From Marinicella sp. (GTDB taxonomy: Bacteria > Pseudomonadota > Gammaproteobacteria > Xanthomonadales > Marinicellaceae), in assembly GCA_965230295.1 (NCBI GenBank), contig OZ246001.1, positions 3,104,001 through 3,168,000 on the forward strand: a stretch of 64,000 nt of DNA, written 5' to 3'. The notes under the pieces were generated by a model. It saw nothing but the letters and a program-made list of their open reading frames with translations. It was not told the origin of the DNA and ran no database searches. Every line of letters starts with the position of its first letter. Positions within the stretch are counted from its first letter, which is position 1. Made by a program: the position numbers and the translations under genes. This document shows positions 10,817-48,265 of this stretch, piece by piece.

Positions 10817-11047
10817 ATGTTAATTTTAACAAGAAGAGTTGGTGAAACGCTGATGATTGGTGATGATGTCACAGTCACAGTATTAGGCATCAAAGGAAAT
10901 CAGGTACGTATAGGTATCAATGCACCGAAAGAAATTGCTGTTCATCGAGAAGAAATCTATGAACGCATTAAGAACGAACAAGGTACTGATGCGCCAGCAG
11001 ACAGTCCCAGTGTTGAAATTGATGAAGACAATCTAGGCAACCAATAA
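10817..11047 (+). CDS. csrA: Carbon storage regulator CsrA/RsmA
   Basis: [24 protein letters not shown]...[10 protein letters not shown]; alaS-csrA-tRNA-Ser context. Confidence 0.99.
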
Positions 11048-11380: not shown

Positions 11381-11471
11381 GGAGAGTTGGCCGAGCGGCT
11401 GAAGGCGCTCCCCTGCTAAGGGAGTATGGGTTAAAAGCTCATCGAGGGTTCGAATCCCTCACTCTCCGCCA
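11381..11471 (+). tRNA. tRNA-Ser(GCT)
   Basis: Cloverleaf with long variable arm, anticodon loop CT-GCT-AA, encoded CCA. Confidence 0.97.
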
Positions 11472-11945
11472 TATTTATTGAGTTCGCGGAGCGAACAGAA
11501 ATAAATATATAGGAAAGTGAAGGTTGAGAAGCCGAGGTTTGAAAAAAACGCCTGGAGCGTTTTTTATCGCCGCAGGCGCCGCGTAGCGGTGGAAACAGGA
11601 TGTTTCCAATAATCCCTCACTCTCCGCCATATTTATTGAGTTCGCGGAGCGAACAGAAATAAATATATAGGAAAGTGAAGGTTGAGAAGCCGAGGTTCGA
11701 AAAAAACGCCTGGAGCGTTTTTTATCGCCGCAGGCGCCGCGTAGCGGTGGAAACAGGATGTTTCCAATAATCCCTCACTCTCCGCCATATTTATTGAGTT
11801 CGCGGAGCGAACAGAAATAAATATATAGGAAAGTGAAGGTTGAGAAGCCGAGGTTCGAAAAAAACGCCTGGAGCGTTTTTTATCGCCGCAGGCGCCGCGT
11901 AGCGGTGGAAACAGGATGTTTCCAATAATCCCTCATGCTCCGTCC
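11453..11945 (+). repeat. Three tandem 158-bp tRNA-linked repeats (RtT-like), each beginning with the 3' 19 nt of tRNA-Ser
   Basis: AATCCCTCACTCTCCGCCA at 11453, 11611 and 11769, degenerate at 11927; units near-identical. Confidence 0.95.
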
Positions 11946-11993
11946 TATTTTTTTGGTGAAACACTGAACTGAATAAATAGCATAGAATTGTTG

Positions 11994-12022
11994 TTGACTT
12001 AAGTTTAAAAAAGCAAGATAAT
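11994..12022 (+). promoter_or_regulatory. Sigma70-type promoter of tRNA-Arg(ACG)
   Basis: TTGACT-17 bp-GATAAT just upstream of the tRNA. Confidence 0.6.
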
Positions 12023-12035
12023 TCGCAACCCTTGA

Positions 12036-12113
12036 GCGCCCGTAGCTCAGTTGGATCAGAGTACCTGGCTACGAACCAGGTGGTCGGAGGTTCGAATCCT
12101 TCCGGGCGCGCCA
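12036..12113 (+). tRNA. tRNA-Arg(ACG)
   Basis: Cloverleaf, anticodon arm CCTGG-CTACGAA-CCAGG, CCA end. Confidence 0.96.
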
Positions 12114-12248
12114 TTTTTAGATTGGCTTTTAAATACAATTTTATATCCAATCGTTCGTTGAAATATGAACAATAAACCTCATTTTATGATTGAACTTGGT
12201 GGTTTTAGGTATTAAAATTCGCCAGCTTGATGAAATGAGTGAATATGT

Positions 12249-12325
12249 CGGGGTATAGCGCAGCCTGGTAGCGCAACTGCTTTGGGAGCAGTGGGTCGGG
12301 AGTTCGAATCTCTCTACCCCGACCA
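12249..12325 (+). tRNA. tRNA-Pro(TGG)
   Basis: CGGGGTA acceptor, anticodon arm ACTGC-TTTGGGA-GCAGT, CCA end. Confidence 0.96.
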
Positions 12326-12343
12326 ATTTATGAAAACCGCAAT

Positions 12344-12420
12344 GCGCCCGTAGCTCAACCGGATAGAGCATCGGCCTTCTAAGCCGAGGGTTGCAGGTTC
12401 GAGTCCTGCCGGGCGCGCCA
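12344..12420 (+). tRNA. tRNA-Arg(TCT)
   Basis: Anticodon arm TCGGC-CTTCTAA-GCCGA, CCA end. Confidence 0.96.
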
Positions 12421-12436
12421 GGCGGGACAAAAATAT

Positions 12437-12513
12437 GGTGGCCGTAGTTCAGTTGGTAGAGCGCCAGATTGTGATTCTGGTTGTCGTGGGTTCGAGCCCC
12501 ATCGGCCACCCCA
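12437..12513 (+). tRNA. tRNA-His(GTG)
   Basis: Anticodon arm CCAGA-TTGTGAT-TCTGG, G-1 present, CCA end. Confidence 0.96.
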
Positions 12514-12571
12514 TATTCATTCCTCATCTCGGGCTTTTTATAGAATTAACATGCCCAAAATTTACAAACAA

Positions 12572-12657
<86 letters not shown>

Positions 12658-19082: not shown

Positions 19083-19158
19083 GGGTGCTTAGCTCAGCTG
19101 GGAGAGCATCGCCCTTACAAGGCGAGGGTCGGGGGTTCGATCCCCTCAGCACCCACCA
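19083..19158 (+). tRNA. tRNA-Val(TAC)
   Basis: Anticodon arm TCGCC-CTTACAA-GGCGA, CCA end. Confidence 0.96.
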
Positions 19159-19163
19159 GATTC

Positions 19164-19240
19164 GGAGCGGTAGTTCAGTTGGTTAGAATACCGGCCTGTC
19201 ACGCCGGGGGTCGCGGGTTCGAGTCCCGTCCGCTCCGCCA
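19164..19240 (+). tRNA. tRNA-Asp(GTC)
   Basis: GGAGCGG acceptor, anticodon arm CCGGC-CTGTCAC-GCCGG, CCA end. Confidence 0.97.
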
Positions 19241-26202: not shown

Positions 26203-26279
26203 TGGTGGCTATACCGGGACTTGAACCTGGGACCCCAGCATTATGAATGCTGTGCTCTAACCAACTGAGCTATATAGCC
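26203..26279 (-). tRNA. tRNA-Met(CAT), elongator type
   Basis: GGCTATATAGCTCAGTTGGTTAGAGC...CAGCA-TTCATAA-TGCTG...CCA; TTGACA-17 bp-GAAAAT promoter upstream. Confidence 0.93.
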
Positions 26280-33832: not shown

Positions 33833-34185
33833 TGGTGGAGACGGCGGGAATCGAACCCGCGTCCGCAAGTCCTCTGCTTGAGGCTCTACATGCTTAGTTT
33901 TGGCTTTTAATCTTATGTCGGCAGCTCCGCCAATCAGGATTTACCGACACCAGTTCAGATTTGATTTAACCCGTTGCGTCTAAACAGCACAACGAGCGAT
34001 CTTGCTGGTTATGACGGACAGTTCACGAACGCAAGAAATCGCGAGTGCCCGTTAGCAATTAAGCTGCTAAAGCGTAGTTATCGTCGTTTGCAACTATAAC
34101 TTTGAAACTGAGTTTTACGAGGTGAATTTCGCCCTCGGCATGCACCTACAAGTTTTGCCACCCACGTCGAAGCCAGGTCGTCCCC
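33833..34185 (-). ncRNA. ssrA: tmRNA
   Basis: 5' GGGGACG pairs with 3' CGTCTCC-ACCA (G3:U wobble), T-arm GGTTCGATTCCC, tag frame ANDDNYALAA*. Confidence 0.98.
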
Positions 34186-40916: not shown

Positions 40917-43900
40917 ATGGCAGCAATTATTCACAATTATCAATCAGGATCATCCGCTGTGTCATTAAAACGAAAAACCAACCCCAGTTCAATCAGTCAT
41001 ACCCCCAGCCGTTTGGCGCTTAACATAGCCATCACCACGGCATTAATCACGGGGTATGGTGGTAGAAATGCCTACGCAGGAACTTGTAGCGGTGTGGCCG
41101 GAACATACACCTGTTCTGGTCCCGCATCACCAGCTGATATCACCCAACAGTTGAATGGGTCTAACCTGACGGTTAATACATCCCCCGGGTTTGGTATTGA
41201 TACCACATTGACTGGAGATGAAGCCTTTAGGTTGTATGCACCCGCTGGGGCTGGCAATGTTATATTTACTGACACCAACAGTTCAATCATTACAGGTAAT
41301 GGTGCGGCCATTGATGTAGGCAATTACAATGATGGCTATATCAGTATCTTTGCCAATGGTACCTTAACCAGCAACACCAGAGATGGGATTTCAATTTACC
41401 AATCCAACAGTGCAACCAATGTTCAAGTGAGCGCAGAAGGTGCCATCAATGCCGATGACAGCGGTATCAGCATCAATAACTATGGCAGTGGTTACGCTGA
41501 TGTCTATTCCAGCGGCCCCATCACAGCGACCAACAACCAAGGTATTCGGGTCCGCAATGACCTTGCAGCCAGCAACATCACCATCAGTTCACAAAATGAT
41601 GTTTCAGGTAATGGGGGTATCTATGCCGGCAACTATGGATCTGGCACCACCACCATCACCGCCACAGGCATTGTGGATGGTGGCGGTGATGAAGGCATCA
41701 GTGTCAACAACTACAACACGGCCAGTTCAGTAACGATCACAGCCAATACAGTCACAGCCAATGATGAAGGCATCAGAGCAACCAATTATGGATATGGTGG
41801 CGTTCAAGTGACTGCCAATGGTGATGTCAGCAGTACCATTCGCAATGCCATAGACATCTACAACAACGGATCAGGACCCATCAACATCACCACCAGAGGT
41901 CTGGTCACAGCAAACAACGGGGTTGGCATCAACGCCTATGCGAGTACGGGCTCTACCGGTGTCACCATCAATGCAGAGGCCAACATCAATGCAGAAGATC
42001 CGGCCATCAACGCGATTAATTTTGGTTTATTCAACACCGACATCAACATCACCAATGCATCACTCGTGAGTACCAACAGCGATGCAGTGGAAGTCCGGGC
42101 CTATGCCGATTCCAATACCCTGAGCATCGATGCCATCAACAGCACCATCAGTGGTCAAACCAACGGCATTTATGCCCGTAACTATGGTTCAGGCCCAACC
42201 ACTGTTTACACCACCGGCAGCGTCACTGGCACAGCTGGCGAGGGGATTAGGGCCATCAGTGAAAACACCAGTTCAGGCTTAAGTGTGACCACACAAAGCA
42301 CAGTTTCAGGTAACCAGAATGGTATCAATGCGCAGAACTATGGCACAGGCAATACTGATTTGACCCTGTCAGGTCCTGTGGTGTCCACAGGCATGTTCTC
42401 CTCGGCCATCAATGTTTACAATGAACTGTCCACCGGAAATGCAACTGTTATTACCCAGTCAACGGTGACCTCACAAAACAATGGCATCAATGTTTACAGC
42501 TATGGCAGCGGTGTCACTTCGGTTGATGCCAGCGGCTACATCACAGCCACCGCTGGCGCGGGGATTATAGCTACAAATGGATCAAGTTCGACGGGTCTTG
42601 CTGTCACAGCCAATGGCGGTATCAACAGTTTTGATGAAGGCATCCGGGCACGTAACTATGCCAACACCAACTCCACAGTCACCGTCAGCAATGGCTCAGT
42701 AATCAGTAATGACAACACTGCCATTGAAATGAGTAATTACAACTACGTCAGTGACTTAACCTTGAATGCATATGGCACAGGTGCCATCAGTGGTCGTGTC
42801 AATGGCATTTACACCAGAAACTACAACGGTGGGTCAATCAGCATCACTGCCAACGGACCCGTATCAGCCACCAGTTTTGTCGGAATCAGTGCGATCAATG
42901 ATTATTTAGGGTTGAACATGTCAATCAATACCTTATCAGCTGTCAATGCTCGGTTTCAGGGCATCAGAGCCCAGCACTATGGTACAGGCACGCTGAGTGT
43001 TTTTGCCCAAGGTGATGTCTCATCGACCAACAGTGATGCCGTGTTTGCTTACAATGGTGGTTCGAATACCAGCACAGTCACCACCCAGGGAACCGTCACT
43101 TCTGACACCGATCGTGGTGTTTATGCATACAGTTCAGGTAATTCAGGTTTGTTAGACATGCAAATTCAAGGTGATGTCAATGCCGCAAGAGAAGGCGTTT
43201 TTGCCCGCCATTCAGGTGTCAGTAATTCACAGATCACGATCAGTTCGGCCACCATCACCAGTACAAATTCACATGGAATTTATGCCTATCAAGACAGCAA
43301 CGCAGGTCAATTAACTATCACCAGCAATGGCAGCATCACAGGCCAAGACAATGGCATCATGGCCACATCAATTGCCCCCAATAACATCACCATCAATGCA
43401 AGTGGATTGGTGCAAGGTCAAACTCAATATGGAATCTACAGCACCACCAATACGGGTGTATTGTCGATCATCAACTTGAATTCTGGTGCCAATGTGCTGG
43501 GTGGTATTTACAACAATGATGGCAACTCAATCTCTGTAGTCACTACTGGTGCTTCAATCAGTGGGCCAATCAACCTCGGTGATGGAAACGACATCATCAC
43601 ATTCTCAGGTGGTGACTTTTCAACAGTCAGTGTTTTCGATGGTGGTGATGATGCGTTGAGTGGTGATGGTTCTACAGATTCTCTGTCTTTTCAGGGTTCT
43701 TCAGGCCTGCTATCTGGAGGAGCATTAATTAATTGGGAAAACATCAACATCAGCTTAACTTCTAACATCCAATTTGATGGTGTTGATTCTTTCATGACAG
43801 AAGAGTTTGATTTACTCAATACCGGCGTCTTGACGTTACAAGACGGTGTCACTGATGATAACTTAACCATCAATGCTAATTTCAATGGCGGTGGTAGCCT

Positions 43901-44846
43901 CAATTTGGATACAACATTAGGTGATGAGAACTCAACCAGCGATGTATTAATCGTCAATGGTGACACCTCTGGAACCACCACTGTGAACATCAATAACGTG
44001 GGTGGGGCAGGGGCCATCACCGCGGCCCCAGGTATTTTGGTGGTCGATGTGAATGGTGCTTCCAATGGACTGTTCGAACTGGCTGCACCTATCAATGTCA
44101 ATGGTTATGAATATGATTTGGTTGCTGTCGGCGGTGATTATTACCTGCAAGGTGATGCCACTGATGCCGATTTATCGGTCAACAAGGAGCTGTTGTCCTC
44201 AGGGCCATTTTTTGTGGGTGACACCGTAACTTATGAAATCACAGTCACCAATGACGGTCCTTTGGATGCCACCAATGTGGTGGTCAGTGATGTTTTTACC
44301 AACCTCACATTGGCATCAGTCACAGGTGGTAGTTGTGCGCCAGCCAGTTTCCCGTGCACCATAGCCAATTTGGCTGATGGGGCATCTGAAACTTTAACCG
44401 TTACAGCAACCATTGATGCTGCAGGTGCCTTTGATAATTCGGCATCAGTCTCATCCGATCAACCAGATGCCAATAGCGCCAATAACACCGACAACACCGG
44501 CAATGGTGGAACCGCCATAGGTCGGTACTTCATTGGTGGTTCTGTCAGTGGCTTGTTGTCAGGCAATTACATGTTGTTGCAAAACAATGATGGTGATGAT
44601 GCCATCATCATGAACAATGGCGCATTTGTTTTCAATACGCCATTGGACGATGGTTCTAACTACAACGTGACCATTGAGATGCAACCGGATGATCCCATTC
44701 AGCCGTGCATGGTTGCCAATGGCAGTGGAACCTTGGCTGGAGTAGATGTCACTGATGTCAGCATCAGTTGTGAACCAGGTAATGATTTAATCTTCCGTGA
44801 TGGATTTTCTGCGCCACCGCCGCCCAGATTCATCGAAGAAAATTAA
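40917..44846 (+). CDS. Large secreted beta-helix (autotransporter passenger-like) protein with DUF11 and DLIFRDGF tail; no beta-barrel
   Basis: Repeated GI.A.NYG.G units, pertactin-like LDTTLGDENSTSDVLIVNGDTSG, DUF11 ADLSVNK...YEITVTNDGP. Confidence 0.8.
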   Translation: MAAIIHNYQSGSSAVSLKRKTNPSSISHTPSRLALNIAITTALITGYGGRNAYAGTCSGVAGTYTCSGPASPADITQQLNGSNLTVNTSPGFGIDTTLTGDEAFRLYAPAGAGNVIFTDTNSSIITGNGAAIDVGNYNDGYISIFANGTLTSNTRDGISIYQSNSATNVQVSAEGAINADDSGISINNYGSGYADVYSSGPITATNNQGIRVRNDLAASNITISSQNDVSGNGGIYAGNYGSGTTTITATGIVDGGGDEGISVNNYNTASSVTITANTVTANDEGIRATNYGYGGVQVTANGDVSSTIRNAIDIYNNGSGPINITTRGLVTANNGVGINAYASTGSTGVTINAEANINAEDPAINAINFGLFNTDINITNASLVSTNSDAVEVRAYADSNTLSIDAINSTISGQTNGIYARNYGSGPTTVYTTGSVTGTAGEGIRAISENTSSGLSVTTQSTVSGNQNGINAQNYGTGNTDLTLSGPVVSTGMFSSAINVYNELSTGNATVITQSTVTSQNNGINVYSYGSGVTSVDASGYITATAGAGIIATNGSSSTGLAVTANGGINSFDEGIRARNYANTNSTVTVSNGSVISNDNTAIEMSNYNYVSDLTLNAYGTGAISGRVNGIYTRNYNGGSISITANGPVSATSFVGISAINDYLGLNMSINTLSAVNARFQGIRAQHYGTGTLSVFAQGDVSSTNSDAVFAYNGGSNTSTVTTQGTVTSDTDRGVYAYSSGNSGLLDMQIQGDVNAAREGVFARHSGVSNSQITISSATITSTNSHGIYAYQDSNAGQLTITSNGSITGQDNGIMATSIAPNNITINASGLVQGQTQYGIYSTTNTGVLSIINLNSGANVLGGIYNNDGNSISVVTTGASISGPINLGDGNDIITFSGGDFSTVSVFDGGDDALSGDGSTDSLSFQGSSGLLSGGALINWENINISLTSNIQFDGVDSFMTEEFDLLNTGVLTLQDGVTDDNLTINANFNGGGSLNLDTTLGDENSTSDVLIVNGDTSGTTTVNINNVGGAGAITAAPGILVVDVNGASNGLFELAAPINVNGYEYDLVAVGGDYYLQGDATDADLSVNKELLSSGPFFVGDTVTYEITVTNDGPLDATNVVVSDVFTNLTLASVTGGSCAPASFPCTIANLADGASETLTVTATIDAAGAFDNSASVSSDQPDANSANNTDNTGNGGTAIGRYFIGGSVSGLLSGNYMLLQNNDGDDAIIMNNGAFVFNTPLDDGSNYNVTIEMQPDDPIQPCMVANGSGTLAGVDVTDVSISCEPGNDLIFRDGFSAPPPPRFIEEN

Positions 44847-44882
44847 AAAAACCGAAGAAAATTTAAATAGTTGATTCTGTTT

Positions 44883-44922
44883 AAAAAATAAGCTGCTTAA
44901 ATGTCCATATATTAAGCAGCTT
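44883..44922 (-). terminator. Intrinsic terminator closing the GGA array (may also serve the plus-strand gene)
   Basis: AAGCTGCTTAA/TTAAGCAGCTT 11-bp stem, U-rich tail on the minus strand. Confidence 0.8.
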
Positions 44923-45188
44923 GCAATTCATGATCACAACACACACTGGCATCCTAGCTCGTGACCAGTCCTTAATAAAGCCAATCCATTTTTGGCTTTT
45001 GGCATCCATGCTGATAATCGTTTCTCACTCAATTCCTAAAAGTGTGGCGGCATCCATTCCGCAGATTATCTTTTCCCTTCTAAAAAACATCCTGTTATTA
45101 ACTGCAGCACACTCATATCCATTTGAGTGATGCGACTTCCATGTCATCGCTACACACCTGAATCCATTCAGGTGTCCCGAAGCGGTGT
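44883..45188 (-). ncRNA. Candidate CsrB/RsmZ-like CsrA-sequestering RNA
   Basis: About 14 GGA motifs (many ATGGA/AGGA in stem-loops) in ~300 nt, all on one strand, ending in a terminator. Confidence 0.7.
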
Positions 45189-45980
45189 TTATGTACCTTG
45201 TGAATTTACATAAAAATTCAAACTGAATGGTTCATAAGTACCTTCCTCAACGCTTGACTCATATTGGTCAACTTTTTCAATGATCCTCACTCTTAAACTG
45301 TCCCGGATTTGTTTTAACTCATCAGACAACTTTTTTTTATTGTCCTGGTTTATTTGGGTTGACTCAACACTCCACTCAAGCACACTGTTGTCTGGGTCTT
45401 CGATGTTTTTTCTGAGGGTATTAACCACTTTAAAAAATTGGTTGGTCGCATAGTCATATTTTCTTGAGTCAGATTGTTTGTTTAACAACTCTGTTTTTAT
45501 GATTTTGACTTCATTCTTACCGATCAGTTCGATACACCCCAACTCAATCAACTCTTTAACTATCGTTGGTGCAGTCAGTCGCCCTTTGCATTTGTTGCAA
45601 AAGTTGTATAAAGAGTCTCCAGGACCTTTCTTGGGGAGCAGGTTGGTGTGGTTGTCTTTCTGATAATGGAAAAGCTCACCCAGTGTCAAAATGATTGGGT
45701 CTGAAGTTTTTCTGGGTTTTTGGTCCTCGGTTTCTTGGGTAGATTGAACCATTGAAATTTGCCTTCGATCTATCCCTGTCTTCAATGAAATGGCTGAAAC
45801 ATTTGAACTGTTGTTGTTCAGTTTACTGGCAGCATCAATGAACGCGACCTTCAGAAGCTCAGCAGTTTCATTGTATTTGATGTTATTGAGCAACAAAAAA
45901 TGGGCCAATTCATTGAACATGGGCTTCAATTTATTGACTTGTTTTGATTTTAATTGTGGTTGTGAAATTGCGGCTTCCAT
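45189..45980 (-). CDS. DUF6502-like protein (HTH-like N-terminal region)
   Basis: LKVAFIDAA...NVSAISLKTGIDRRQI...IVKELIELG pattern. Confidence 0.65.
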   Translation of the reverse strand: MEAAISQPQLKSKQVNKLKPMFNELAHFLLLNNIKYNETAELLKVAFIDAASKLNNNSSNVSAISLKTGIDRRQISMVQSTQETEDQKPRKTSDPIILTLGELFHYQKDNHTNLLPKKGPGDSLYNFCNKCKGRLTAPTIVKELIELGCIELIGKNEVKIIKTELLNKQSDSRKYDYATNQFFKVVNTLRKNIEDPDNSVLEWSVESTQINQDNKKKLSDELKQIRDSLRVRIIEKVDQYESSVEEGTYEPFSLNFYVNSQGT

Positions 45981-46266
45981 TAATTTGTGTCCCTAATTGG
46001 ACACAATAATAGCATGAGACTCAAAAAAAAGCAAACTAAATTAAGTTTTTCCCTGGGTAATTACAATAGGGCCATATAAAACAATAAGATATAAAGCCTT
46101 TAAAATGCCGCTATTGCTTAGCAATTATTGTACTTTTGCCAAACAGATCAAGGAAAGTGACTGGTTAAGTCAGTAGACTTAGGAGCTGACAGATCAATGT
46201 CTGATGTGATTTGGGCCATTCTTGTTGGTCCAACTCATACCAGCTAGAATAGTATTGGAGGCAATC

Positions 46267-47190
46267 ATGCTTTTGTTATCGAATTTATTGTCCTATTTAA
46301 CAGACCCTATTTTCTTGTTTGGCTTGTTGTTGGCGTTTTGTTTATTTTTGATCAAGTACCTGCTAAAAACCAAAAGAATCAAAGAGCTGCCTGTCGGACT
46401 GTCACAGAAGGTACCCCCTGTGGTTTGGAAGCATGGTTACCTTTTAGGTCTTTTGGTGATGGTGTCAGGCATCATGTTAAAACACAAAGAACTGCAACAG
46501 GCAGAGCAACAGAATGCCATGTCACAATTGATTGTGGAGTACAGCCAAAATATTTCAACCATCAGACAACTGTCAGAAAATACCAAGATTCAGTTGGAGA
46601 CACGTGCTGTTGTGACCAACTCATTGCGCACAAATGGATCGAGAATTTTGGACATCATGTTCCCTAAAGAAATCAAACCTGAAAACACAGACCTTAATAT
46701 TACCAAGGTTGTAGACGATTCATTTGAACAATTGAAAAAAGCCCGGTTATTTAACAGTAAACCTGATATGGATGCCTTTAATTCGATCAAAGGGAAAATC
46801 AGTCCTAAAGTGAATATGCATTTGGCAGAATTGAAATCTATGCAGGATATCAACGGTGATCAGTACATCATCAAGACCAGTATTTATCAAGGACATAAAG
46901 AAATCTTAGCCAGCATTGAATCGTTCGATGCACAAGCTTATGAAGATTTGATTTTAGAGATGGAGGAACTCCGAAGCCAATATGATTTGGTGTTAAACCA
47001 TGCTGAAGATTTCATCTCGGAAACCAAAAACTTCATGGACCGCAATACATTCATTGGGAATGGAGATGTCTATGAAATCCTCACCAAGGAGCGCTTGGCT
47101 TATAAATCATTAACTGAGTTTGATGCAGCCATCATTGGAAAAGCCAATGACTTGGTGCGGATGAAACAAAACATTCAAAGCTTTTTGTAA
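46267..47190 (+). CDS. Hypothetical membrane-anchored protein
   Basis: GGAGG SD, two TM segments followed by a helical domain. Confidence 0.7.
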   Translation: MLLLSNLLSYLTDPIFLFGLLLAFCLFLIKYLLKTKRIKELPVGLSQKVPPVVWKHGYLLGLLVMVSGIMLKHKELQQAEQQNAMSQLIVEYSQNISTIRQLSENTKIQLETRAVVTNSLRTNGSRILDIMFPKEIKPENTDLNITKVVDDSFEQLKKARLFNSKPDMDAFNSIKGKISPKVNMHLAELKSMQDINGDQYIIKTSIYQGHKEILASIESFDAQAYEDLILEMEELRSQYDLVLNHAEDFISETKNFMDRNTFIGNGDVYEILTKERLAYKSLTEFDAAIIGKANDLVRMKQNIQSFL

Positions 47191-47203: not shown

Positions 47204-48265
47204 TTATCTTTTTTTGACTTGGGTGACGAGTCCCAATGCATTCAGTGCGGTATAGACGGTTAACGGGTAGCGTTGTGGGATGTTCAGCAATTTACCTGTG
47301 TGTTGTAACGAATAAACCCCTCTGGACCACAATGAAATGATGCGGATGGCATGTTTGAATACCACCAATTTGGTTAAATCAGGCCATGCAGTTAATTTGA
47401 CTGGTGTGCTGAAATTGCTGTCATCGGGGATTTTACCTTTGCTGGCATTGATGCTGCTGAGCCAGACAAAAGGTTCGTAATCAAACTGGTGCAATTTTTG
47501 CAATTCGCCTCTTTTTAATTTAGGCAAAAACACTTTACTGTCTTTATAAAAAGGAATTTTATGTATGTTGATGATTTCTTCAGCAGTCTTTTTATGGTAG
47601 ATGAGTTTTGTTGTGGCATCCACATAAAACACGCCATAAACCGTTTTGATGCAGGCGGTTTTCTTCTTCAGTTTAGATAAATCGTAAGCATCTTTGAGGT
47701 ATTTAAAAAAGTAATTGTTTACATTGAATTGGACTTTCTTAACTTGGCTTGAATCACTGAAATCCACATCAGGGTTTATTCCAACATACTTCTGTGCGTA
47801 ATACCTGTCACTGCCATATTGGATTTGAGCGGGGTTGATCGCATTTGATAAATGCCTGTTGTATATTTGTTTTTCAGGTTTCTTCTGATTTTTTATTCGC
47901 AACCTTTCAGCCAAGACAGCGTAAAAGACATCCTTAACCAGGTATAGGTATTTGCTGAGCTCTCGATTCTTGTAAGGTTTTGTGATGACCCTTAAGTAGG
48001 GCTCATCTTGCAGATCCTGGGCATCGGTTAACAGAATCATCGGAATTGATGCTTCTTTTAACTGTTCTTTGAGGGTTTTGATTTCTGCCATGTCTTCATC
48101 TGACTCCTGGTTGTACAAGCAGACATCAGCCTCTTGTGGTTCTTCCATGAGTTCAATGGCGTATTTGGGGTCTTTCAAACGAGAAAAGATTAATTTTTTT
48201 GAAATGTTGTCAAAACCATAAAAACAGGCAGTTACATATTGGGTATCAAGGTTGTTCTTAATCAT
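47204..48265 (-). CDS. Hypothetical protein co-oriented with the MglA-like gene
   Basis: 353-aa ORF; C-terminal PVKLTAWPDLTKL...IISLW...ALGLV winged-helix-like end. Confidence 0.7.
   Translation of the reverse strand: MIKNNLDTQYVTACFYGFDNISKKLIFSRLKDPKYAIELMEEPQEADVCLYNQESDEDMAEIKTLKEQLKEASIPMILLTDAQDLQDEPYLRVITKPYKNRELSKYLYLVKDVFYAVLAERLRIKNQKKPEKQIYNRHLSNAINPAQIQYGSDRYYAQKYVGINPDVDFSDSSQVKKVQFNVNNYFFKYLKDAYDLSKLKKKTACIKTVYGVFYVDATTKLIYHKKTAEEIINIHKIPFYKDSKVFLPKLKRGELQKLHQFDYEPFVWLSSINASKGKIPDDSNFSTPVKLTAWPDLTKLVVFKHAIRIISLWSRGVYSLQHTGKLLNIPQRYPLTVYTALNALGLVTQVKKR

Follow-up and report, generated by a model that had tools for sequence, protein, structure and literature searches.

Among the most widespread post-transcriptional switches of bacteria is the one that is adjusted through CsrA-sequestering RNAs, here called sponges. 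To our knowledge, these RNAs are mostly unmapped outside the Enterobacterales, Pseudomonas, Vibrio, and Legionella, as no sequence is common to them. The present analysis concerns a GGA-rich, hairpin-forming stretch on the minus strand (44883..45188) of a 64,000-nucleotide window of the Marinicella sp. genome (GenBank assembly GCA_965230295.1, contig OZ246001.1, positions 3,104,001 to 3,168,000). This stretch, hereafter the array, directly follows a gene for a DUF6502-like protein, referred to below as the host open reading frame (ORF). Judged from its sequence, the tail of about 300 bases that it would add to the host messenger RNA (mRNA) is very probably a new and unusually large CsrA sponge of the mRNA-tail kind. 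Positions are those of the window unless genome coordinates are indicated.

The sponges CsrB and CsrC of the Enterobacterales and RsmX, RsmY, and RsmZ of Pseudomonas and Legionella resemble the array in their multiple GGA motifs, many of which are in hairpin loops, in the unrelated stems on which these motifs are carried, and in their intrinsic terminators. They are stand-alone intergenic RNAs with a GacA/UvrY box, whereas the array has neither such a box nor any intergenic space of its own. In size and in number of sites, the array lies within the range of CsrB, CsrC, and RsmZ.

Two sponges that reside in a 3' untranslated region (3' UTR) come closer in position. RsmW of Pseudomonas aeruginosa is located in the 3' UTR of PA4570 and binds RsmA, and it is reported to have neither an intervening terminator nor a usable promoter of its own (PMC4950607). 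In the same accounts, RsmW is released from the co-transcript and is not activated by GacA (PMC4950607, PMC13622538). It contains seven GGAs, three of which are on outer loops, and gives Northern bands of 400 and 120 bases (PMC4950607); RNase E appears to be the enzyme that cleaves it (PMC13622538). RsmU (sRX061) of Xanthomonas campestris arises by processing of the mRNA of comEA (XC1332), in whose 3' UTR it begins 25 bp past the stop codon, and it binds RsmA both in vitro and in vivo (PMC7694677). The short form of RsmU is 77 nt long, its two isoforms carry 3 and 4 GGAs, and the RNA was missing from Rfam at the time of its description (PMC7694677). Because RsmU and RsmW are documented, a 3'-UTR-borne RsmA/CsrA sponge is already known in kind. 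What is new at the present locus is a family unrelated in sequence, a new lineage, and a CsrB-like size.

As far as the published description of RsmW and an Rfam scan allow a comparison, the array is similar to RsmW in its place immediately behind a gene whose function is unknown and from which no terminator separates it. It differs in having 14 GGAs in about 306 nt, as against the 7 of RsmW, and in its host, a DUF6502-like protein of 263 aa, whereas PA4570 encodes an unrelated protein of 74 aa. With RsmU, the array has in common the order Lysobacterales, the position shortly after a stop codon, and the lack of an Rfam family, which for RsmU applies to the time of its description. Compared with RsmU, it is about four times longer, carries 14 GGAs, and has a host other than comEA. 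The host gene is unlike both comEA and PA4570 and is not an orthologue of either. The candidate is CsrB-sized, yet it is situated in a predicted mRNA tail, where the documented examples, RsmW and RsmU, are small. A literature search for Marinicella together with CsrA found nothing.

The array had been described as unannotated, and this agrees with the Rfam scans: no relevant family matched in the window at the gathering score, and no Csr/Rsm family matched at E <= 10 in 44600-46300. The CsrB model (RF00018), with which an E. coli control was detected, gave 0 matches in the whole genome, as did RF00166. A match of the RsmY model (RF00195) elsewhere in the genome, at 2218501, scored 25.7 bits against a cut-off of 57; it is treated as a chance match, because the site consists of the end of a coding gene and a terminator and has no GGA cluster.

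Composition of the array

The genome, a single contig of 4.008 Mb with 44% G+C, belongs to the genus Marinicella of the order Lysobacterales. The stop codon of the host ORF (TAA) occupies 45189-45191, and the array, about 306 nt in length, begins at the next base on the minus strand. From 45188 to 44883, this strand contains 14 GGA and 0 TCC, the latter being equivalent to 0 GGA on the opposite strand. Seven ATGGA motifs are found on the minus strand of the array, at positions from 44904 to 45167; the whole window contains 152 over both strands, i.e., about 1.2 per kb per strand. Genome-wide, the minus-strand GGA count of 300-nt segments has a mean of 2.91 (sd 1.82), and the array, with 14, is the maximum. 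The array is also the maximum for minus-strand ATGGA, with 7 (mean 0.35, sd 0.61), the plus-strand maximum being 6. When segments are ranked by ANGGA, the array, with 9, is surpassed only by the intergenic array at 1.596 Mb that is discussed below and has 11. Another ANGGA-rich spot, at 3428826 (+), was set aside: it reads as coding sequence and is without the hairpin-loop pattern.

The array is non-coding. Its GGAs are spread over the three phases (5/5/4), stops are present in every frame, and the mini-ORFs that it contains in sense or antisense (40, 42, and 69 aa) have no Pfam match and are not conserved in Marinicella meishanensis. The array is located between convergent genes, with a 1309-aa ORF on the plus strand ending at 44846. 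A dispersed repeat had been named as a possible alternative identity of this segment; its DNA is in fact single-copy in the genome. Contig pieces of a near-identical strain contained no useful variation within the array.

Hairpins and exposure of the GGA motifs

Hairpin 1 (45154..45175, minus strand; ACACCUGAA-UGGA-UUCAGGUGU) has a 9-bp stem, a UGGA loop, and a folding energy of -11.3 kcal/mol; the probability of its GGA being unpaired, P(unpaired), is 1.00. It is followed on the same strand by hairpin 2 (45132..45150; GCGAU-GACAUGGAA-GUCGC; -4.1 kcal/mol) and hairpin 3 (45110..45129; CACUCA-AAUGGAUA-UGAGUG; -5.7 kcal/mol), which are both enclosed by a conserved helix, GUAGC...GCUGC. Next is a weak hairpin, AACA-GGA-UGUU (45086..45096, minus strand), containing ACAGGAUGU, which we take to resemble the consensus for CsrA obtained by systematic evolution of ligands by exponential enrichment (SELEX). 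A second enclosing helix, GAUAAUC...GAUUAUC, surrounds hairpin 5 (45047..45062, minus strand; GCGG-AAUGGAUG-CCGC; -4.9 kcal/mol) and hairpin 6 (45026..45044, minus strand; CACUU-UUAGGAAUU-GAGUG; -2.2 kcal/mol). Farther downstream on this strand are a mini-hairpin, GCA-UGGA-UGC (45002..45011; 0.0 kcal/mol), and hairpin 8 (44977..44999; AAAGCCAA-AAAUGGA-UUGGCUUU; -7.4 kcal/mol). The array ends in an intrinsic terminator (44883..44922, minus strand; AAGCUGCUUAA-UAUAUGGACAU-UUAAGCAGCUU, then AUUUUUU; -13.3 kcal/mol), in which an 11-bp stem carries an 11-nt loop with AUGGA, and a U-run follows 3' of the stem on the minus strand only. This terminator is absent from the consensus scan for such sites, because the loop limit of the scan is 8. 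When folded singly, eight GGA-loop hairpins, terminator included, have energies ranging from about -2 (-1.9) to -13.3 kcal/mol.

Exposure of the GGAs was assessed with the partition function, and 150 shuffles that preserve the dinucleotide composition served as the control. The GGAs have a mean P(unpaired) of 0.73, vs 0.41 for the whole array RNA; in the shuffles, the mean for GGAs is 0.46 +/- 0.11, and the value of the array is reached in 1 of 150. Eight of the 14 GGAs have P(unpaired) >= 0.7, a number that no shuffle attains (0/150; mean 1.2, maximum 4). The fold of the whole array RNA has z = -2.67. This test replaced a crude hairpin test (contiguous stem >= 4, loop <= 11), which is lax, because 53% of genomic GGAs pass it; by the crude test, 12 of the 14 array GGAs are in hairpins, a number reached in 0 of 1000 shuffles, and the array tops the genome with 12 vs the next 10, or with 8 vs 7 when the stem is required to be >= 5. 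Many exposed GGAs confined to one strand, the feature that characterizes the class of CsrA/RsmA-sequestering RNAs, are therefore found here.

A preliminary description of this DNA, made from its letters, had counted about 14 GGAs on the minus strand and none opposite, quoted several GGA hairpins, placed most of the motifs in loops, and ended the array in a terminator of 11 bp whose loop holds ATGGA. The counts agree, the quoted hairpins are all present, the loop placement is supported by the shuffles, and the terminator is the one at 44883-44922.

The orthologous trailer of Marinicella meishanensis

The only syntenic orthologue locus found is that of M. meishanensis (genome G003), in which the host protein is 47% identical. 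The divergent 322-aa gene upstream also has its counterpart there, a membrane-protein gene (40% identity, E = 4e-77). The preliminary description had proposed to look for GGA-rich trailers behind homologues, and one is present at this locus, with different stems: the 370 nt from the stop codon contain 12 GGA and 1 TCC, and local segments of G003 DNA average 3.9 GGAs (sd 2.55). The mean P(unpaired) of the G003 GGAs is 0.80, vs 0.47 +/- 0.09 in shuffles; it is at least 0.7 for 8 of the 12, a count reached in 0/150 shuffles. A small CCG...CGG hairpin opens the array in both species, and the G003 terminator, too, has a GGA in its apical loop. The downstream neighbors differ between the two species, and the linkage of ORF and array is kept in both.

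BLAST found no link between the two trailers. MAFFT aligns them collinearly, with 52% identity over columns 13-260, and places 9 of the 14 array GGAs within 2 columns of a G003 GGA; circular shifts yield a mean of 2.4, and 0 of 322 reach 9. The trailers also have in common a series of linker islands, GTGYAGC-N16-CATCAC-N14-GTGWGCTGC. A linker pattern drawn from both arrays matched those two only among 44 genomes.

Most stems differ between the species, while the GGA positions and short linkers are kept. Hairpin 1 corresponds in G003 to CACACACA-GGAGG-UGUGUGUG, the stem of which is unlike ACACCUGAA/UUCAGGUGU. The counterpart of the weak hairpin AACA-GGA-UGUU is ACACCAC-AGGAC-GUGGUGU (-9.4 kcal/mol), that of the GCGG/CCGC stem is GCGACU/AGUCGC, and that of the mini-hairpin is GGCC-AGGAA-GGCC (-5.8 kcal/mol). 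In the consensus structure that RNAalifold builds from the two trailers, 38 pairs are kept in both species, and in 14 of these both partners have changed; if the partners are displaced by 1-3 columns, 0-3 such changes remain. Helices 2 and 4 of this structure, to which hairpin 3 and its enclosing helix belong, have two pairs changed on both sides, and helix 6 (GAUAAUC...GAUUAUC), with 7 pairs, has one compensatory change.

Probable transcription of the array

A single sigma-70-like match, TTGATC-16-AATAAT at 46124..46151, was found on the minus strand of 44700-46300. It lies upstream of the ORF and is to be read as a consensus match, 1 being found vs 4.2 expected in shuffles. Consensus scans found no sigma-70-like promoter inside the ORF and no terminator-like site between ORF and array, either here or in G003. 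No GacA box (TGTAAG-N6-CTTACA, up to 3 substitutions) is present in 44800-46300, and none is present upstream of the 1.596-Mb array either. The promoter module of the Marinicella intergenic sponges, described in the next section, has best partial matches with 3/12 and 6/16 substitutions at the candidate. The former is a 9/12 match to the first half of the module (TTCACAAGGTAC) at 45204, 15 nt before the stop codon, and is not conserved in G003.

Because the promoter, terminator, GacA-box, and sponge-module signals are absent, the 3'-UTR route appears to be favored over a promoter inside the gene. The U-run of the terminator, which is present on the strand of the ORF alone, points the same way. 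The position of the array, directly after a gene, with no intervening terminator and with a terminator of its own, is that expected of a 3'-UTR sponge, and the same arrangement is seen in G003. The preliminary description had left two origins standing. Derivation from the 3' UTR is favored by this absence of signals; transcription driven from inside the gene fares less well, as no sigma-70-like site was found there. Its statement that no GacA box is visible holds with up to 3 substitutions in 44800-46300. The inverted repeat TGAATTT-N6-AAATTCA, which it had reported in the last codons of the ORF, is real (45201-45220) and has no counterpart in G003; for this reason, the repeat is probably incidental.

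Another palindrome, GTGTCC-N6-GGACAC (45987..46004, minus strand), is located directly before the host start codon and occurs just once in the 4-Mb genome. G003 has kept it along with the preceding flank CATGCTATTATT, and it is absent upstream of the five paralogues of the host gene. The palindrome may serve as an operator or form a hairpin in the 5' UTR; its G003 copy was also flagged as terminator-like by the scan.

CsrA and the intergenic sponges of Marinicella

The window also contains csrA, as the preliminary description had stated. The gene (10817..11023, plus strand; 68 aa; PF02599, 92.9 bits) is the only copy in the genome, and a CsrA-family protein is thus encoded in the same genome as the array. 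Over residues 1-56, this CsrA hardly differs from P. aeruginosa RsmA (1vpz; E = 3.4e-28) or from E. coli CsrA (1y00). Given this near-identity to solved RsmA/CsrA structures, GGA specificity can be assumed. A tRNA cluster is located directly downstream of csrA.

The genome contains a second sponge candidate, which is intergenic (about 1596431-1596663 in genome coordinates, minus strand; L023/L027). It has about 12 GGAs, its G003 counterpart has at least 17, and no Rfam family matches it (E <= 1). Homologues make up an intergenic sponge family (L031, L032, L034, L035, L037, L040, L043, L044, L045, and L050), in which a conserved promoter/5' module, TTTTTTGACAAGGTTT-N10-CGAGTATATAAGTAAG, precedes a 5' hairpin and a set of GGA hairpins, CUCAAGGAUGAG among them. 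The TGACAA-N17-CGAGTA spacing suggests that the promoter is non-standard and possibly of the extracytoplasmic function (ECF) type. The module is multi-copy in several species, with 5 BLAST matches in G010 and 7 in G012.

The array shares with these intergenic sponges the genomes in which they occur, presumably the CsrA that they would bind, and a GGA array. It differs from them in being without the promoter module and without CUCAAGGAUGAG hairpins; in this genome, its motif is AUGGAU and not AAGGAU.

The module also precedes apparent coding genes, both in relatives (L042, L046, and L048) and at 2021670 (+) in this genome. This second match in the genome was considered as a sponge and rejected: what follows reads as a coding gene, and there is no array. 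The genes behind the module in the relatives appear to start with signal peptides, and the module may define a small regulon of sponge RNAs and secreted proteins.

The host gene and its homologues

The host ORF (45189..45980, minus strand) encodes 263 aa and belongs to a multi-copy paralogue family. Its product matches DUF6502 (PF20112) with 12.7 bits (E = 0.058), below the Pfam gathering cut-off of 27 bits. Six of eight orthologues match this family at E <= 1, the best at 7.3e-4, all of them sub-threshold. Pfam and NCBIfam scans (E <= 10 and <= 0.01) returned DUF7824 and DUF6502 alone, both sub-threshold, and all 30 language-model neighbors shown are DUF6502 clusters (top score 0.96). By these comparisons, the host protein is a remote DUF6502 relative and not a certified member. 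The label "DUF6502-like" of the preliminary description is therefore apt for a remote relation and does not extend to an above-threshold family match. Its companion label, "helix-turn-helix-like," is weakly supported. The AlphaFold model has a predicted local distance difference test (pLDDT) score of 70.3 and a predicted template modeling (pTM) score of 0.42, and there are 0 PDB matches at E <= 0.001. The weak fold matches of the model (E = 0.28-0.65) are winged-helix nucleic-acid binders, including RNA-hairpin-binding ROQ domains.

The family of the host ORF has 6 matches in this genome and matches in 42 of 61 relatives. Close homologues of the host protein were found in G003 (47%) and G013 (38%) only, across 24 genus, 44 family, and 401 order genomes. 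Public protein data contain orthologues at 97-41% identity (P0002-P0009). A search of genome contigs returned only a G003-equivalent record and a G013-like metagenome-assembled genome, and two metagenome scans added no orthologue loci. Among 19 non-self homologue loci, a GGA trailer is present in G003 only, and the five paralogues of this genome are without one. The G013 locus was rejected as a third comparison: synteny is lacking, and the ORF there is succeeded by a small peptide gene.

In this genome, DUF6502-like paralogues have, within a few bases downstream, a small ORF that encodes a signal peptide and short Gly/Thr/Asp repeats (TEDGSG, DTGTGG, GDGTG). The loci concerned are, in genome coordinates, 249668-250381 (+), 531297-531854 (-), 2554694-2555326 (-), and 2849400-2849999 (+). 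The same arrangement is seen in relatives (L005, L007, and L009), and the paralogue and its small ORF have the appearance of a conserved cassette of two genes. G013 likewise has a small signal-peptide gene in the slot behind the ORF. Because the slot holds a peptide gene in the paralogues and in G013, the array looks like a derived replacement in the lineage of this genome and G003; the polarity, with the array replacing a small peptide gene, would follow from this distribution.

Proposed explanation and its alternatives

We propose that the array is made as the 3' UTR of the DUF6502-like mRNA and is ended by its own intrinsic terminator. The 14 GGAs, of which about eight would be exposed in loops, would present several sites to CsrA, and with this number of sites the array could hold several CsrA dimers. 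Transcription of the host gene would then lower free CsrA through the sponge, and the tail may be cleaved from the mRNA and persist longer than it, as in the case of RsmW and RsmU. What we infer is transcription of the minus strand, in one transcript with the ORF, the binding and titration of CsrA, and processing, if any. Of the separate parts of this proposal, the most secure is that the minus strand encodes a functional structured RNA, of which we are highly confident from the patterns described above. Binding of CsrA to this RNA is likely, and the full statement, that the array is a 3'-UTR-borne CsrA sponge, is held with moderate confidence.

Several observations speak against the proposed 3'-UTR sponge. 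The array is seen in two species, so that the covariation rests on two sequences, and the figure of 38 kept pairs is inflated, because the consensus structure was built from the same two sequences. The triplets GTG (5/9) and ACA (4/8) are conserved almost like GGA (9/14), and MAFFT favors aligning identical triplets. In the crude hairpin test, the G003 trailer (7/12, reached by 110 of 1000 shuffles) is not significant, and at stem >= 6 the array of this genome is no longer the top segment. The missing promoter consensus is weak evidence, and the same scan finds only one site in 1.6 kb. Because the genome already has a canonical sponge of about 12 GGAs, the array may be superfluous as a sponge or act in cis alone. 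It should also be noted that GGA counts are an imperfect proxy, because RsmU retained binding and function with all four of its GGAs changed (PMC7694677).

Four other explanations deserve to be weighed. The array might be an independent small RNA gene with the same sponge function, expressed from an unrecognized promoter in the last ORF codons and therefore uncoupled in level from the host mRNA. In support of this, the array starts a few bases past the stop codon with the conserved CCG...CGG hairpin, which could mark a primary 5' end. The promoter scans were limited to the sigma-70 consensus, the Marinicella sponge promoter is itself non-canonical, and the 9/12 match to TTCACAAGGTAC is close to the stop codon. 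However, the module has no second half here (best match 6/16 substitutions), neither the match at 45204 nor the inverted repeat at 45201-45220 is conserved in G003, and the ORF of neither species has a sigma-70-like site inside it. Moreover, ORF and array have remained linked in both species despite different downstream neighbors, and an independent gene appears rather unlikely. The same physical coupling to the ORF, together with the separate canonical sponge in this genome and in G003, would also fit a purely cis-acting 3' UTR, by which CsrA would control how stable the host mRNA is, how its 3' end is formed, or how it is translated, with no meaningful titration. RsmA binding is described as altering the stability of the host mRNAs XC1332 (PMC7694677) and PA4570 (PMC4950607). 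We nevertheless judge a role confined to cis control to be unlikely. With 12-14 sites and about eight exposed hairpins, the trailers are far above the needs of known cis control and on the scale familiar from CsrB, CsrC, and RsmZ; the cis and sponge roles are, in any case, not exclusive.

The remaining two explanations dispense with CsrA altogether. The location between convergent genes could be that of an insulator or terminator zone, and the weak winged-helix/ROQ matches of the host model (E = 0.28-0.65) could point to a structured RNA or DNA element to which a factor other than CsrA binds, perhaps the winged-helix-like protein encoded next to it. An element of this sort is quite improbable: GGA loops and their strand bias (14:0 and 12:1) are kept in two species despite differing stems, the downstream convergent gene differs between these species, the five paralogues and 18 of 19 other homologue loci have no such array, and all of the fold matches are non-significant. 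As for a functionless chance cluster, or a decayed remnant of a small Gly-rich repeat-peptide gene, the slot does hold a small signal-peptide gene in the paralogues and in G013, and Gly codons include GGA. Descent from such a gene was rejected, since the GGA phases (5/5/4) reveal no phase bias and blastn-short against the peptide genes gives 10-11-nt matches only (E >= 0.19). The array is extreme genome-wide, its loop exposure exceeds that of shuffles in both species, and its arrangement is conserved, so that an accident of composition can practically be dismissed.

If the 3'-UTR sponge proposed here is real, large sponges can arise within 3' UTRs, in this case in the slot that holds a small-peptide gene in the paralogues, and the availability of CsrA would be tied to expression of a DUF6502-type gene. 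The locus adds a sponge candidate, belonging to no catalogued family, in the Marinicellaceae (Lysobacterales), and this candidate and the Marinicella intergenic sponge family provide a starting map of the Csr system of the lineage. A far more speculative extension, which we consider very doubtful, is a protein-gated module in which the winged-helix-like host protein would recognize its own 3'-UTR hairpins or the GTGTCC-N6-GGACAC palindrome and thereby gate CsrA uptake. By this extension, a protein-controlled CsrA sponge would have replaced a small secreted repeat-peptide gene.

Neighboring features

Pfam and NCBIfam, where tested, gave no match for the three ORFs around the locus. The convergent neighbor (40917-44846, plus strand; 1309 aa) is highly repetitive and rich in Gly, Thr, and Asn. 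The divergent neighbor (46222-47190, plus strand; 322 aa), the one conserved beside the G003 locus, has a hydrophobic N-terminal region, and it is followed by an ORF of 353 aa on the minus strand (47204-48265). Elsewhere in the window are tRNA genes on the plus strand (11381-12654 and 19083-19237) and on the minus strand (26206-26279), as well as an ordinary tmRNA gene (33833-34185, minus strand).

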